Assembly: GCA_048939465.1 (NCBI GenBank)
Contig: JBHLPL010000015.1
Coordinates: forward strand, 19,887 to 25,464
DNA: 5,578 nucleotides
Source of the DNA: Promethearchaeota archaeon
Lineage (GTDB): Archaea > Asgardarchaeota > Odinarchaeia > Odinarchaeales > JBHLKK01
Direction: 5' to 3'
The notes beneath the pieces are model-generated. The model did no database searches. It saw nothing but the letters and a program-made list of their open reading frames with translations, and had not been told where the DNA came from. Numbering within the stretch: the first letter of the stretch is position 1; every line of letters begins with the position of its first letter. Shown piece after piece: positions 448 through 5,578 of this stretch. The translations under genes and the position numbers were made by a program.

Positions 448-1611
448 TCAGGGAGATATTTTTTCCAACAGTTCTTCTATTCTTTTTATACCCTCAACTA
501 TATTCTTAAGAGAAGTTGAATAGGATATACGGATATTTCCTTCCCACGCGAAAACCGATCCTGGAATAGTAGAGACTCCGGCTTCTTCCAGAAATCGCAT
601 CGTCAAGGTTTTTGAATCAAGACCAAAACTACTGAAATCCGGAAAAACGTAGAATGCACCCTTAGGCATGGGACAACTAATTCCCTCTATATTATTTAAA
701 GCACGTACAGCGGCTCTTCTCCTTCGGTCGTATTCATCTATCATCCTTCTCAAGCTGTCTTGAGGATCTCTGAATGAGGCCACCGCCGCCTTTTGTGCAA
801 AGCTTGTTGGGCAGGTTGTACTGTTTTGCTGGATCCTAAGCATATTGTCAATTACCTCCCTCGGTGCCGCAGCATATCCAAGACGCCACCCTGTCATTGC
901 ATACGTTTTCGAAAAACCGTTGATCAATATTGTTCGAGACATGAGGTTGGAAAATGAGCCCATGCTGATTTGCTTCATGTCATCATAAACAAATCTATCG
1001 TACATTTCATCACTCAGTACGAGTAGATCCTTTTCGTTGGCCAAATCTGCCACTACACTCATTTCCTCTTCGGTCAAGATACCTCCCGAAGGATTGTTGG
1101 GGGAATTTATCACAATAAGCTTTGTCTTATCGCTTAATGACTCTTTCAGAGCTTCTTTGTCCAGAGAGTAGGTTTCGCTGGTAGAAACCCCCACTGGGAT
1201 TGCCCCAGCAATTCTTGTTATGACAAAGTATGTCGGCCAGGCCGGCGTAAGTATGAGAACCTCATCCCCCGGATTGACTGTGGACAATATCGCACACAAG
1301 ATTGCATGTTTTCCTCCAGGAGTCACTATGATCTCTCTTCCGGGGTCAACATCCACACCTTTGGTTCTGAGATCTTCAGCAATCGCTTCCCTCAGCTCAA
1401 GGAGCCCGTAGCTTGAAGTATAATGAGTGAACCCTTCATCCAAGGCCGTGGTTGCTGCCTCTCTTATGTTTTTGGGGGTTGTGAAGTCAGGTTCTCCAAC
1501 GTCCAAATGGATGATTTTTTTACCTGAACGCTCCAGTGCACTGGCTTTCTCAAACATACCGAGGGTTCCGGAAGGTGGGATTACATCCATTCTTTTTGCG
1601 CTAAATCGCAT
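448..1611 (-). CDS. aspC: Class I/II PLP-dependent aminotransferase (aspartate aminotransferase subgroup Ib-like), 387 aa
   Basis: Motifs IHLDVGEPDF, THYTSSYGLLELREAI, VTPGGKHAI, INSPNNPSG, LSDEMY and the PLP lysine motif GFSKTYAMTGWRLGY. The ORF-track start at 1833 overlaps the upstream gene by 155 nt. ATG at 1611 (MRFSAKRMDVIPPSGT) gives the normal family length. Substrate specificity is not proven. Confidence 0.9.
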   Translation of the reverse strand: MRFSAKRMDVIPPSGTLGMFEKASALERSGKKIIHLDVGEPDFTTPKNIREAATTALDEGFTHYTSSYGLLELREAIAEDLRTKGVDVDPGREIIVTPGGKHAILCAILSTVNPGDEVLILTPAWPTYFVITRIAGAIPVGVSTSETYSLDKEALKESLSDKTKLIVINSPNNPSGGILTEEEMSVVADLANEKDLLVLSDEMYDRFVYDDMKQISMGSFSNLMSRTILINGFSKTYAMTGWRLGYAAAPREVIDNMLRIQQNSTTCPTSFAQKAAVASFRDPQDSLRRMIDEYDRRRRAAVRALNNIEGISCPMPKGAFYVFPDFSSFGLDSKTLTMRFLEEAGVSTIPGSVFAWEGNIRISYSTSLKNIVEGIKRIEELLEKISP

Positions 1612-1650
1612 TTTGATTCCCACGATTTTTGTGCGCTCTATTGCAGAGCT

Positions 1651-1666
1651 GTAATAAAAAACTTTG
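1651..1666 (-). promoter_or_regulatory. AT-rich element between the Panacea-like gene and the aminotransferase: TATA-like box and/or oligo-T terminator
   Basis: The minus strand reads AAAGTTTTTTATTAC, about 40-55 nt upstream of the ATG at 1611 and about 13-28 nt after the stop at 1679. It could be a BRE/TATA or an archaeal U-tract terminator. A short inverted repeat GCTCT-ATTGC-AGAGC (1635-1649) lies between it and the start codon. Confidence 0.4.
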
Positions 1667-1678
1667 TTAACCAGAAAA

Positions 1679-2626
1679 TCAGTCTTGCTCTCTCGGGAAA
1701 TATCCCAAAAGGTAGCATACCTCGACCACAGGTTTTGTCCCAGCGATTTTGAGTACGCCTCCGACTTCCAAAACCCATTTTGCCACCGTCTCAGGTTTGC
1801 TCTCAAGATAGAAGGTTTGACCCGAGAAATCAATATAGCAATCTACAACATTTTCCGCTGTACAGGCGTAACGATGTGACAGTTTGCAGAACATGCCAAA
1901 AGCAGCGAGTTCAACCTTATGAAAAACGCCATACAGTTTGACCGGACAGCAGGGGAATATTTCTCTTCTAACCCAGTCTTTCTTAAGCTCCGTGATTGAA
2001 GGATATATGGCTGCTCGACTCCTAAATCTATCGATTAAGTTCAGCGTATTCTGGTCCGTGTGGAGAGCATTATTGAGAGGAATCTGAAGGCTTATCCTCC
2101 TGTTCAGGTCTGCTCTCCAATGGAGAGCATTTGTTAAAATGTATTCTTTTATGGTGTCTACATTTAGATAAAGCATTGTTGGCTGTACTATTTGCTGAAA
2201 GGTTTCATAGGAGGCGCAAATTAGATCCGAAGTTGACAGGGCACCATATTTCTCTGTGAAGTCCGACAGGCTTTTCTTCATCAATGGTGCCACATCAAGC
2301 AGGTTGCAGGCGTTTTCTTCACCTTGCTCAGAGAGACGGATTGGCTTTGACAAGGGTGATGATCGACTCTGAATGAAGAACTGCTGAATCAGTCCCTGCT
2401 CACTCAAGTCCAAAGAATTGTCTGTTATTTCGGCGGAATATGGACCGTATAGATAAGGGTAGAATACGAATCGCTCGCTGAAGACCTTATCTCTGTGAGT
2501 CGCCAAGAATATCAATTTTTGAAGCCTAATCACACTTTCGATCTTTCCGCCAAAAGCACTCAGCATGGTCAGAATTGTGTTCTCCTGCTGTATTCCGTTT
2601 TTCTCAAGCGAATCCGTATGTGACAC
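1679..2626 (-). CDS. Hypothetical 315-aa protein: N-terminal Panacea/SocA/YwgA-like domain plus a putative C-terminal OB-fold
   Basis: The N-terminus GKIESVIRLQKLIFLA...FVFYPYLYGPYSAEI...L..L.EQGLI matches the LQKL.Y/F...YGPYS signature of YwgA/Panacea (DUF4065-like) proteins. The C-terminal beta-rich pattern VKLYGVFHKVE / FGMFCKL / VVDCYID / VLEVGGVLKI / KPVVEVCYL suggests five OB strands. GTG start preceded by purine-rich GGAAGGGG, with a TTTAAATA box about 40 nt upstream. Confidence 0.75.
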   Translation of the reverse strand: MSHTDSLEKNGIQQENTILTMLSAFGGKIESVIRLQKLIFLATHRDKVFSERFVFYPYLYGPYSAEITDNSLDLSEQGLIQQFFIQSRSSPLSKPIRLSEQGEENACNLLDVAPLMKKSLSDFTEKYGALSTSDLICASYETFQQIVQPTMLYLNVDTIKEYILTNALHWRADLNRRISLQIPLNNALHTDQNTLNLIDRFRSRAAIYPSITELKKDWVRREIFPCCPVKLYGVFHKVELAAFGMFCKLSHRYACTAENVVDCYIDFSGQTFYLESKPETVAKWVLEVGGVLKIAGTKPVVEVCYLLGYFPREQD

Positions 2627-2823: not shown

Positions 2824-3546
2824 TTGGAGGAAAAATCTAATATAAAGCAAGAAGAGCTCATGAGTCTGCTTAAGGAACTGGAAGGCAAGACTGCCCTTGA
2901 GGCATCGGCCGTAGTTACAAAAGATGGGATGAGACTGGCATGCTCTGTCAGTGCTGAAATGGATGCAGATATTTTCTCCGCAGCCGCTGCTGCCATGGTA
3001 AATCTTGGATCAATGACCATAAGAAGGCTCAATCAAGGCAAGCTGAAGGAAATAATCGTTAGAGGAGACGAGGGCTATACGATGGTAACGGATTGCGGGA
3101 ATGATCTGATGCTTGTTGCTGCTGGAAGAGAGAGCTTCCGTTTAGGCTACTATCTTGGGGTTTTGAAGAAGTACGCAAGAGATGTATCAAAAATCATGGG
3201 TATTGTGGGTAAACCAGCAAAGCCACCATCAGAAGAGATAACGCCATCTGAGGCGACTCCTGCCGAATCGACACCCATGGAGGTACCATCAACCGGCGTT
3301 TCGCCGACTGATACACCATTGACAGAGGTTGCATCAACAGAATCAATGCCCGCCCCATCGGAAGAACCTGTTGCACCGTCAGAGGAAGAGACTTCGAGTG
3401 CTGAATCTGCTGCTCTAAGTGTACCGGAAACAGCTCCTTCTCAGAAGTCAGCCCAAGATGAAGAGAAATCAGCCTTGGAAGCTGAGAGAAAAGCGATATT
3501 AGAAGCGCTGAAAGCTCTCGGATGGGAAGAGTCATCGGGAGAGTGA
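2824..3546 (+). CDS. Roadblock/LC7 (MglB/LAMTOR-like) domain protein with a long low-complexity acidic C-terminal extension, 240 aa
   Basis: Residues ~8-125 show the Roadblock pattern: helix (ELMSLLKELEG), ASAVVTKDGMRL, FSAAAAAMVNLGSMTIRRL, GKLKEIIVRGDEGYTMV, LMLVAAG, LGYYLGVLKKYARDV. An ~82-aa P/S/T/E linker and a terminal helix follow. The TTG start is supported by the GGTGA SD. Confidence 0.88.
   Translation: MEEKSNIKQEELMSLLKELEGKTALEASAVVTKDGMRLACSVSAEMDADIFSAAAAAMVNLGSMTIRRLNQGKLKEIIVRGDEGYTMVTDCGNDLMLVAAGRESFRLGYYLGVLKKYARDVSKIMGIVGKPAKPPSEEITPSEATPAESTPMEVPSTGVSPTDTPLTEVASTESMPAPSEEPVAPSEEETSSAESAALSVPETAPSQKSAQDEEKSALEAERKAILEALKALGWEESSGE
3214..3459 (+). repeat. Low-complexity Pro/Ser/Thr/Glu linker with four degenerate PSE(E) units within the Roadblock protein
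   Basis: PPSEE, TPSEA, APSEE and APSEE, encoded by CCATCAGAAGAG, CCATCTGAG, CCATCGGAAGAA and CCGTCAGAGGAA. The segment has no aromatic residues. Confidence 0.7.
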
Positions 3547-3850
3547 ACCATTCTCGGCTCTCGCAAGGGGCTTCCGCCCTTGAACTCCGAATTTCTACTA
3601 GGTCTCTCTTTTTGGGGCAGGGAACTCGCTCTGAGGAGGATGTAGGCCGGTTCGTTTTCCTTCTTTATACAGTCGCGGGCTGAAGAAGCCTGCCCTTAAG
3701 CGATTAGCCCAAAGCCCTATTTTCCGTGTAGACTTCTCCTTTCGATCCTCCTTTCTTCCGAGATCAAAAGGTCTTAGACTCAGGTATCTAAGGAAGCATT
3801 CAAAAGTAGCGCAACCCATCCTGACGTTTGCGTATGGGTCTCCTTGCAAA
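3543..3850 (-). ncRNA. Candidate unannotated structured RNA (family unknown; possibly an orphan IS200/IS605 omega-RNA-like remnant)
   Basis: Complementary segments in plus coordinates: 3560-3568/3842-3850 (end-closing), 3813-3819/3834-3840, 3773-3779/3786-3792, 3730-3750/3760-3774, 3615-3621/3689-3695, 3660-3672/3680-3688, 3564-3582 (GGAA tetraloop on minus), 3545-3560 and 3634-3641/3745-3752. The imperfect positions are G-U pairs on the minus strand and A-C mismatches on the plus strand. Confidence 0.6.
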
Positions 3851-3873
3851 CAACAGATAAAAAGAAGGAAAGA
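3848..3873 (-). terminator. Possible U-rich archaeal terminator of the large membrane-protein gene
   Basis: The minus strand reads CTCTTTCCTTCTTTTTATCTGTTGTTT, a pyrimidine/T-rich tract about 50-75 nt after the stop at 3924. Confidence 0.35.
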
Positions 3874-3923
3874 GTGCCAACAATCCTATCTTCAATCCAA
3901 CGGTTTTGTATCGAATTTCGCAC

Positions 3924-5578
3924 CTATGATTTCCTCAGTTTTTCCAAGAACTCCCTTCTTTCTTCTGGCGGCAGGCTTTTGAGTTCTTCGGTGAGAATCA
4001 GCTTTTCTTCAGCGGAGATTATTTGCTTCTGTAAGAGTTCTTCCAGTGCGTCCTCTATCTCTTCTTCCGTTAGAACCTCTTTGGCGAGTTCTTTCTTGAT
4101 TAACGCTTGTTGTTCAGCCCTTGCTCCCACCAATGTTCTTATAAATTGATCTCTTTCTGAAGGCTCCATTCCAGAGAGCTCGGATACAAGAGCTTCTTTT
4201 TCACTCTCAGGTAAACTTGGGAATTTATCATAAACAACTTCTCGCAGTTTGGCAATCTCCGGAATCAGTTCTGCCTTCCCAGGAGAGGGGGCTAGTTCCG
4301 CTTCGGGCATCGATATTCCGGCGGACGCGAAGAACTTAGATTTACTTCCGCTTATCAGAGCTTCTCTCGTCGCGATTATCTCCTCTTTAACTTGCTTATT
4401 CTTTTTTATCGAACTTATAGTTCTTACTATCTTCTTGACAGTCGATGGAAGTCTTGCCCATCTGTAGTATCTTAGGGCTCCGTATCCTGCCGGAACAGCA
4501 GTAATCCCTATCATAAATAGCGCAAGAGTTAGGATAAGCGGGAACGGTGTCCCTATTGACAAGCTGAACCGAACGGATCCCGTAGGAGTATCATAGACTT
4601 CAAAGGTAGTATCTCCTACTGTTCTTCCTGGCAGTGCTACATTTAGATTTATCCAGTAATCTCCCGGTTCTAGGTCTTGCGTTGATATGACGGCCTCATA
4701 TGCGGTTCCCACAAGGCTAAGTCTGCCAGATATCGAGGTTCCCTCGATGAAATAGGTTATGTTGGCGTCTAGAATTGGCAACTGATTATCCGTATCCATC
4801 AATTCTACTCTAAGCGGATTATCCTCCCCTGCCGACACACTGGCATTCCATACCAGAAGGGAAATGGACGGCTGCAATTTTTCTGTGAGAACCGTTCTTG
4901 TATCCGCTATTGGTATTGCAGAAAGTTCATAGAATGTTTTGTTCGCGTACGCAACAGCGAGATACGATCCAGGTTTCATTGCTGAGGTGTTTAGTTCTAT
5001 CTCATATTCTCCGTTCCCGAGTGGTGTGTATGACCAGTAGCTGGAATTCCAATTAAAGGTAATGCCGGCATTCTCAATCGGACCTATTCTTGGATCCAGA
5101 TTACATGAATATTTGACAATCATACTTACGTTTCTTCCCCAGGGAACTTCAGCAGGATCCGGCTCGATGCTCATCAATTCTAAACTGGCTGACCACTCAT
5201 CTATTACTTGAAGAGGTATTGAGAATTGAATCGATTGATAGTATTGTGATATTGAAATCAAGACGATTATTGTATAATTCTCAGCATTCGAACCCGATGT
5301 ATTTAGACTGAAAGCATATAGTCCGGAAGAACCTGTTTGACCGAAGGGATTTTGGACTTCTTCCCAAGGAAGAATATAGGTTCCATTTGCGCCTGTCACA
5401 TTTCTGACAGGATCCATCACCGTATCGTTAGATTTAGCCCTAAATGTGACTGTTAGATTCTCTCCCAGTGCGGCTCGAAGCATTTTAGTACCGTCAACAG
5501 TTAGCTCGAAGTCTAGAGAGGAACCCCATGGCTCCACGTATGTAGGTACTGGAAGAAGATTTAAGGTGATATTCAGTT
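3924..5578 (-). CDS. C-terminal part of a large single-pass surface/S-layer-like glycoprotein with Ig-like beta-sandwich repeats, a TM helix and a helical cytoplasmic tail (5' end outside the window)
   Basis: The frame stays open from the GTG at 5537 to the window edge (LNITLNLLPVPTY-VEPWG...). Three repeats share G.Y...(L/I).T.....(G/N)Y: SGLYAFSLNTSGSNAENY, NGEYEIELNTSAMKPGSY and GTAYEAVISTQDLEPGDY. There are 13 N-X-S/T sequons before the hydrophobic segment FPLILTLALFMIGITAVPAGYGAL (4544-4473) and none after it. Basic residues follow the TM (RYYRWARLPSTVKKIVR). Confidence 0.85.
   Translation of the reverse strand, partial: LNITLNLLPVPTYVEPWGSSLDFELTVDGTKMLRAALGENLTVTFRAKSNDTVMDPVRNVTGANGTYILPWEEVQNPFGQTGSSGLYAFSLNTSGSNAENYTIIVLISISQYYQSIQFSIPLQVIDEWSASLELMSIEPDPAEVPWGRNVSMIVKYSCNLDPRIGPIENAGITFNWNSSYWSYTPLGNGEYEIELNTSAMKPGSYLAVAYANKTFYELSAIPIADTRTVLTEKLQPSISLLVWNASVSAGEDNPLRVELMDTDNQLPILDANITYFIEGTSISGRLSLVGTAYEAVISTQDLEPGDYWINLNVALPGRTVGDTTFEVYDTPTGSVRFSLSIGTPFPLILTLALFMIGITAVPAGYGALRYYRWARLPSTVKKIVRTISSIKKNKQVKEEIIATREALISGSKSKFFASAGISMPEAELAPSPGKAELIPEIAKLREVVYDKFPSLPESEKEALVSELSGMEPSERDQFIRTLVGARAEQQALIKKELAKEVLTEEEIEDALEELLQKQIISAEEKLILTEELKSLPPEERREFLEKLRKS
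3927..4217 (-). repeat. Four degenerate short helical repeats in the cytoplasmic tail of the membrane protein
   Basis: SLPESEKEALVSEL, GMEPSERDQFIRTL, IISAEEKLILTEEL and SLPPEERREFLEKL, arranged as two similar pairs separated by an E/K-rich helix. Confidence 0.6.

Follow-up and report, generated by a model that had tools for sequence, protein, structure and literature searches.

A protein-less IS200/IS605-family element of tnpB origin between two convergent genes of an Asgard archaeon

The locus and its empty counterpart

The stretch of DNA analysed here (the window, 5,578 nt in length) comes from an archaeon of the Odinarchaeia and contains two convergent genes separated by a gap of 377 nt (positions 3547-3923). 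The first gene (2824-3546, plus strand) encodes a Roadblock/LC7 protein (Pfam PF03259, E = 3.5e-14), and the second (3924-5537, minus strand), which was taken from the list of open reading frames, encodes a predicted membrane protein of 537 amino acids for which a Pfam scan returned no family. The initial annotation had described a discrete element of about 300 nt between these genes, at 3543-3850, and such an element is indeed present. Comparison of the filled site with an empty one, together with the sharp ends of the alignment of paralogues, sets its true limits at 3543-3856 on the minus strand. These 314 nt take in a left end, remnants of tnpB and a right end but no protein gene, and the gene for the membrane protein lies outside them. 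The statement that the element is 3' of both flanking genes was nearly right; however, the Roadblock gene ends on a TGA (3544-3546) that belongs to the element.

The empty site is found on contig C50 of the sister genome G002, where the orthologous Roadblock gene (77% amino acid identity, full length) is followed after about 75 nt by the same convergent neighbour and the 314 nt are missing. When positions 3543-3856 are removed in silico, the remaining sequence is collinear with G002 across the junction. The junction was fixed by global pairwise alignment of the excised sequence; MAFFT run on the filled and empty pair misplaced the gap. There is no target-site duplication, with 0 bases duplicated at the junction between the window and G002:C50, and the 314 nt are a mobile insertion placed directly 3' of TTTAT. 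This target or transposon-adjacent motif occupies 3857-3861 on the minus strand, directly 5' of the left end, and TTTAT or TTCAT predominates at the same position among 58 aligned left ends of the repeat family described below.

The right end of the element overlaps the end of the Roadblock gene, yet the encoded protein ends in ...GWEESSGE* in the window, after in-silico excision and in G002 alike. Before the insertion the gene ended GA|A TAA, with the ancestral TAA stop held in ATAAA, the complement of the TTTAT target motif. After the insertion it ends GA|G TGA, in which the last base of the final codon and the TGA stop (3543-3546) come from the complement of the right end, GTTCAC. Read on the complement, TT(T/C)AT gives A-TAA/TGA-A and GTTCAC gives G-TGA-AC, and because the target motif and the right end both carry a stop codon on the complement, the element can sit on the stop codon of a gene.

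The repeat family and its relation to tnpB

The element belongs to a large family of repeats in its own genome, the assembly of which comprises 1.96 Mb in 152 contigs and is 91% complete. BLAST against this assembly recovers only the last ~55 nt of the element as repeated, with the same outcome in the sister genomes, and the family is therefore visible only by profile search with nhmmer. A first nhmmer round with a 381-nt query found 15 full-length paralogues, and a profile built from the first paralogues detected at least 24 diverged full-length copies of about 300-390 nt, the window copy included. It also detected about 60 further partial copies, built from 5' and 3' modules common to the family that are often spaced about 240 nt apart, and the 1.96 Mb hold about 84 left-end modules. 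Similarity among the paralogues begins abruptly at ...TTTAT|CT... and ends abruptly after ...AGTTCAC, and family members occupy dozens of unrelated genomic contexts. The window copy is 45-58% identical to its paralogues, and an alignment of 21 full-length copies contains two subfamilies that differ by large indels.

Subterminal imperfect palindromes are found at both ends of the element, and terminal inverted repeats are absent. The left-end hairpin (3813-3840, minus strand), which corresponds to helix ii of the initial annotation, has the position and architecture of the left ends of two elements in the same genome, on contigs C105 and C2. In the family register, 76% of its cells are paired compared with 41-56% in slid controls, and four pairs show compensatory changes. 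The right-end palindrome, together with the terminal ...GGTTCAC, occupies 3543-3570 on the minus strand; it is 79% paired in the family with little covariation, and the position logo shows a sharp boundary after the final C.

These ends are shared with the elements of the genome that carry transposon genes. One tnpA(Y1)-tnpB element is present, on contig C105, and its Y1_Tnp gene (C105:1180-1545, E = 7.5e-37) encodes the sole Y1 TnpA in the assembly. An element on C2 carries tnpB without tnpA, and the third tnpB is split between the ends of contigs C70 and C55. Directly upstream of these genes (tnpA-tnpB on C105, tnpB on C2 and C70) lies the 5' module of the family, and the left ends at these elements read out as a GNRA-type hairpin. 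The right ends of the tnpB elements on C2, C105 and C55 carry a similar hairpin followed by (C/T)AGTT(C/T)AC, exactly as in the window element. The assembly thus contains a Y1 TnpA that could act in trans on the dispersed, multi-copy family.

After the left-end hairpin, the alignment of full-length copies has a conserved consensus box, TTTAAATA, and tnpB on C2 is preceded by this same box. The box may represent the archaeal TATA-type promoter of the lost tnpB. Its counterpart in the window (CTTTTGAAT, 3798-3806, minus strand) is degenerate, the TATA-like box of this copy reading TTTTGAAT where the family has TTTAAATA.

Derivation from tnpB is established by intact elements in sister genomes. 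In G001:C76, G002:C94 and G007:C44 the 3' part of the family follows immediately after the TnpB zinc-ribbon, and Pfam PF07282 matches in these relatives coincide with earlier DNA matches of the 3' part of the element. The family HMM is split at G001:C76 and G002:C94 (E = 1e-59 and 1e-64), with HMM positions 11-137 corresponding to the left end and the start of tnpB and positions 106-348 to the right end together with the ~220 nt at the 3' end of tnpB, and both ends of the element are fully homologous to these two tnpB elements. The TnpB of G001:C76 (417 amino acids, PF07282 E = 2.9e-19) served as a tblastn query, and its residues 358-417 match a decayed remnant of the last ~60 tnpB codons in the window copy (3557-3739, minus strand; 42% over 62 amino acids, E = 7e-6). 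The match to residues 3-24 is a very weak remnant of the first ~25 codons (3760-3825, minus strand; E = 2.8), and this 5' remnant (the first ~25-36 codons), faint as it is, is clearer in the paralogues on C40 and C77. The C-terminal match reaches 68% over 72 amino acids (E = 1e-29) in the paralogue on C69, and in several copies the match is split over two frames, indicating a broken reading frame. Apart from these decayed remnants, the window element contains neither a transposase nor a nuclease gene of its own.

Only sister genomes yielded the TnpB subtype that matches the element. In the genome of the window, the three intact or partial tnpB genes are of other subtypes (28-45% identical), and as tblastn queries against the element copies the TnpBs of this genome gave nothing significant. 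The G001:C76 subtype is represented in the assembly by remnants on C69, C127 and C151, and an intact TnpB of this subtype is absent from it, an absence that in an assembly that is 91% complete is no proof. Shorter elements of about 240 nt retain the last ~18 codons of the C2 or C55 tnpB, and internal deletion derivatives are therefore common in this genome.

The 3' 180-240 nt of the element are homologous to the last tnpB codons and the right end of the elements in sister genomes. In TnpB systems studied by experiment, the 3' end of tnpB and the right end encode the guide RNA, about 16 nt of the flanking DNA serve as the guide, and the target motif acts as the TAM (PMC8612924). Archaeal omega RNAs are known to be expressed (PMC12558985). 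By homology, the retained tnpB 3' end and right end would be the region encoding the scaffold of a TnpB guide RNA (omega/reRNA). In the window copy, the scaffold homologue delimited by the family HMM lies at 3543-3721 on the minus strand and spans the family helices P1 and P2/P2a/P2b, a partly lost pseudoknot strand, a lost P3, P4 and the right-end hairpins. The TnpB mechanism (PMC8612924) would place a putative guide of about 16-20 nt in the host flank at 3523-3542, on the same strand.

Structure of the family and of the window copy

Conserved structure was assessed in two alignments, one of 21 full-length paralogues (A1) and one of the 3' ~175 nt of 19 copies (A3). Three of the copies in A3 come from other genomes, where their position immediately 3' of tnpB was verified. 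In A3 the family fold consists of three hairpins, P1 (10 bp), P3 (GNRA) and P4, and a three-way domain, P2/P2a/P2b, with a possible pseudoknot GUGAAC/GUUCAC. In this fold the 3' 175 nt are 87.6% paired, compared with 35-51% when the partners are slid, and 13 pairs are changed on both sides (24 cells versus 8.1 expected). The covariation score of the family is 0.171 versus 0.121 +/- 0.008 in shuffles, 0 of 500 of which scored as high, for copies that are related to one another, a structure that was read from one of them and a region that is partly protein-coding in some. Two further helices are compatible but covary little: a long-range CCUCCC/GGGAGG helix (93% paired) and one in which GUGAAC pairs instead with the terminal GUUCAC (91%). 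A naive search for compatible stacked column pairs yielded many spurious helices and was dropped.

Since the two subfamilies differ by large indels, RNAalifold on the whole 21-copy alignment returned a single helix, the CAAGGG/CCCTTG hairpin. This hairpin (3564-3582, minus strand) is helix P4A of the family and helix vi of the initial annotation, and 97% of its cells are paired in A3 and 87% in A1.

The window copy stands apart from this covarying family fold, having lost P3 and retained only a weakened pseudoknot strand. The claim that its structure is denser than expected by chance does not hold for this copy. On the minus strand, the 308 nt to which the claim referred fold at -91.7 kcal/mol versus -90.0 +/- 5.4 kcal/mol for dinucleotide shuffles (z = -0.31), and the plus strand is likewise unremarkable (z = +0.12). 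The 3' scaffold of G002:C94 folds into most of the family helices (z = -1.37), and that of the window copy does not (z = +1.22). Judged by folding energy alone, which is no better than in shuffled controls, the outcome is one that the initial annotation had itself named as refuting its claim.

The individual helices proposed for the element fared unevenly, and the family fold shares about half of them. In A1 the share of paired cells is 87% for helix vi, 76% for vii, 69% for i, 68% for ii, 64% each for iii and v_b (CAG/CUG), 49% for v_a, 47% for the helix that closes v, 42% for iv and 37% for v_c. In the family, helix ii is the left-end hairpin, v_a/v_b match P2a/P2b and vi matches P4; helix iv and the helix closing v occur in the window copy only. 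The helices cannot all coexist, as i overlaps with vi and with vii, and iii overlaps with iv.

The strand preference that had been read from the sequence was correct. G-U pairs on the minus strand are conserved in A3, where columns 13/23 carry one in 18 of 19 sequences and columns 147/163 in 16 of 19. The proposal that a single strand, the minus one, was under selection also stands, and in IS200/IS605 elements this is the top DNA strand that is transposed as well as the strand from which the guide RNA is transcribed. Two ordinary processes explain the polarity, since the hairpins on which TnpA acts belong to a single DNA strand and the guide RNA comes from this strand as well.

Origin, alternatives and known systems

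What kind of element occupies 3543-3856? We consider it very probable that it is a non-autonomous, protein-less member of the IS200/IS605 family, of the PATE or IS605-type MITE kind, that descends from a tnpB-bearing ancestor, and the same explanation, at the same high level of confidence as a whole, includes that its insertion was tolerated because a stop codon in the right end takes the place of the one that the Roadblock gene lost. In this explanation a deletion removed nearly all of the ancestor's tnpB and spared the left end, hairpin and promoter region included, the final ~180-240 nt of the gene and the right end. Elements of this kind are mobilised as single-stranded DNA by a Y1 TnpA provided in trans, which recognises both subterminal hairpins on the top strand, excises that strand and inserts it immediately 3' of a short motif (TTTAT in this case), leaving no target duplication. 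Read-through of transcription into the flank would add a guide that matches the empty site of the element itself, such that a TnpB supplied in trans could cut vacated sites and thereby restore the element.

From the sequence features described above we infer that the element could be transcribed, could specify a guide RNA and could still be mobile. For the copy in the window, a present function as guide RNA is doubtful, since its box and P3 are degenerate and it folds no better than shuffled sequences. This copy is old and decayed. Given that state, and with a cognate TnpB missing from the assembly, it most likely represents a relic that has ceased to be an efficient guide-RNA gene.

The initial annotation suggested instead a stand-alone structured RNA of about 300 nt with a cellular function, possibly representing an undescribed archaeal class. 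Several features would fit such an RNA, including the intergenic position, the strand-specific G-U pairs and the conservation of some helices among paralogues. The inability to assign it to a known RNA class was also confirmed, in that the whole window matches none of the Rfam families, RNase P, SRP, riboswitches, group II introns and HEARO among them, at gathering thresholds, with chance-level matches only at E <= 10, all on the other strand, and a tRNA/tmRNA scan found none. However, a sequence that is mobile and multi-copy, that is missing from its site in the sister species and that has IS200/IS605 ends and decayed tnpB coding remnants is poorly accounted for by a cellular RNA, particularly when its folding is no better than that of shuffles and about half of the proposed helices are not conserved. 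This reading is already largely refuted and we regard it as highly improbable; the claim of a new class lacks support for what is a multi-copy, mobile, gene-less derivative of a tnpB element, a kind already described. A group II intron or a retron was also considered and rejected, as the genome has no reverse transcriptase domain and there is no Rfam intron match.

It is also very hard to maintain that the sequence is a 3'-untranslated or terminator element of the host that serves the two convergent genes, even though it lies between them and has stable GC-rich hairpins, given that the same gene pair in the sister species is separated by about 75 nt with no such element and that the sequence family occurs in dozens of unrelated contexts. 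An open reading frame of 83 amino acids (3598-3849, minus strand) raises the question of a small protein, to which we give next to no credence. The frame is open over 83 codons, but its product matches no Pfam family, it differs from the frame of the tnpB remnant, and many indels in the paralogues fall across it, so the frame is not conserved.

A more serious possibility, though one that we judge to be improbable, is that the element is an active or domesticated cassette for a trans-acting guide RNA. The promoter in its left end would drive expression, and the RNA would serve a TnpB, or a nuclease-dead TnpB-like regulator, encoded elsewhere. Such a cassette might maintain the element or might regulate the Roadblock locus, being antisense to its 3' end. 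The covarying scaffold is kept even in copies with a broken tnpB frame, the promoter-like TTTAAATA box is conserved in the family, and PATEs with omega RNAs that act in trans have been proposed (PMC10055086). Against this, the window box reads TTTTGAAT, P3 is lost, the pseudoknot strand is weakened and the scaffold has a z of +1.22; in addition, the cognate TnpB subtype was not found in the assembly, and the only site matched by the guide would be the one vacated by the element itself. We favor the decayed, protein-less IS200/IS605-family element as the explanation of the locus.

The position of the element on a stop codon has parallels elsewhere in the family. At 5 of 36 family right ends the TGA in the complement of GTTCAC closes an antisense open frame of at least 80 codons, and among all GTGAA sites in the genome 2.6% close such a frame. 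Four of the five docked frames are above the curated Pfam cut-off and encode the Roadblock protein, a peptidyl-tRNA hydrolase (PTH2), ribosomal protein uS9 and an Lrp/AsnC regulator, with the models of PTH2 and uS9 matched to the last residue; the fifth has a sub-threshold match to DUF4760 only. When the element is excised in silico from the Roadblock, PTH2, uS9 and DUF4760-like frames, the complement of TT(T/C)AT again supplies a TAA or TGA in frame, as read by eye at the junctions.

The docking pattern may be only the product of a survival filter combined with the similarity between the target motif and the right end. A bolder proposal, which we put forward tentatively and consider rather unlikely, is that the target motif and the right end are stop-codon mimics on the complement and that the diverged gene-less copies are kept as a library of trans-acting guide RNAs. 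If mimicry were true, an antisense insertion would exchange NNA-TAA for NNG-TGA and leave the protein intact, and the 3' ends of even essential genes, such as those for uS9, PTH2 and Roadblock, would be open to colonisation.

The analysis removes a false lead, in that there is no new archaeal RNA class at this locus, and documents, through a filled and an empty site, a gene-less IS200/IS605 element with clear limits in an Asgard archaeon. Such elements form a large repeat family in a small genome, and the annotation of Asgard MAGs is affected, since the elements break assemblies and mimic structured RNAs and small open reading frames. The covarying scaffold and the intact TnpB in sister genomes constitute a usable candidate for an Asgard TnpB and guide-RNA pair, and docking that preserves stop codons is a small, testable idea on how elements avoid harm to their host.

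The guide-RNA region may be compared with that of ISDra2, for which the reRNA or omega RNA of TnpB is known (Karvelis et al. 2021, PMC8612924; structure in PMC10097598). The scaffold predicted for the window element shares the position of that RNA, being formed by the tnpB 3' end and the right end and stopping at the transposon boundary, so that the flank would be the guide and the target motif the TAM. The two have no detectable sequence similarity, however, and the window scaffold of about 175 nt has helices of its own and only a putative association with TnpB.

Closer in kind are the PATE-like, gene-less IS200/IS605 elements of Geobacillus stearothermophilus, which carry omega RNAs (Meers et al. 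2023, PMC10055086), and PATEs often encode omega RNAs that need TnpB in trans (PMC10055086). Like the window element, the Geobacillus elements are minimal, have conserved ends, keep the guide-RNA region and would need both TnpA and TnpB in trans. They differ in that they are bacterial and that their expression and TnpB function have been tested, whereas the window copy is decayed and known from sequence alone.

PATEs and core-deleted IS605-type elements have also been described in Haloquadratum walsbyi, where HqIRS71 has retained a remnant of the C-terminal coding part of tnpB (Dyall-Smith et al. 2011, PMC3119063). The window element resembles these PATEs in having no protein gene, no terminal inverted repeats, near-terminal palindromes at both ends and no target duplication. 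In both cases internal-deletion derivatives of tnpB (IS1341-type) elements are present in many diverged copies per archaeal genome, with insertions that are specific to a strain or species. In contrast to the Haloquadratum PATEs, the window element resides in an Asgard archaeon rather than a haloarchaeon, belongs to another sequence family with another motif (TTTAT/TTCAT), and its retained part has homology to the 3' end of tnpB as carried by intact elements of sister genomes. The gene-less IS200/IS605 element is thus a kind already described in both archaea and bacteria (PMC3119063, PMC10055086).

Other genes in the window

The aminotransferase gene (window 448-1833, minus strand; PF00155, E=3e-69), whose listed start is the first TTG, overlaps the upstream 315-aa open reading frame (window 1679-2626, minus strand) by about 150 nt. 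The real aminotransferase start probably lies downstream of this TTG since the Pfam domain begins only at residue 106 of the listed frame. A Pfam scan assigned no family to the 315-aa frame or to the 537-aa membrane protein (window 3924-5537, minus strand), and in the latter the membrane segment is followed by a C-terminal tail that is long, charged and helical.

Stop codons supplied by right ends

The right end of the element family provides an antisense gene with a replacement TGA stop (window 3543-3546), and the original TAA or TGA is contained in the target motif TT(T/C)AT, read on its complementary strand (window 3857-3861). Other right ends of this kind lie elsewhere in this archaeon's genome (G000) on contigs C77 (9048), C69 (11694), C59 (248) and C48 (18818). 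Counting the window's own Roadblock gene, the arrangement is seen at four genes, the other three being PTH2, the gene of ribosomal protein uS9 and a DUF4760-like ORF. Such a stop is supplied at 5 of the 36 family right ends versus 2.6% of GTGAA sites genome-wide, where the sites counted are those whose TGA ends an open frame of at least 80 codons.

Related subfamilies and an apparently divided tnpB

About ten copies in the same genome carry an additional ~60-70 nt inside the scaffold, the part homologous to the TnpB guide-RNA region (e.g., C77:9035-9399, C137:14164-14552 and C24:2868-3256). These long copies, whose middle region differs (...GGGGCACAGAAAC...CCCC...), are a separate subfamily. 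The genome also contains several further subfamilies of gene-less IS200/IS605 elements of ~240 nt each (e.g., C130:5150-5385, C123:3278-3517, C137:8590-8830 and C38:1590-1814), which retain ~18-30 codons from the very 3' end of tnpB genes that belong to other subtypes (C2-type and C55-type, after their contigs) and have a left-end module in common with the window element's family. In total, ~84 left-end modules are present in 1.96 Mb.

A single tnpB gene is apparently divided over two contig ends (C70:3-926 and C55:5735-6043). The two pieces overlap by 25 identical amino acids, and the split exemplifies assembly breakage by such repeats.
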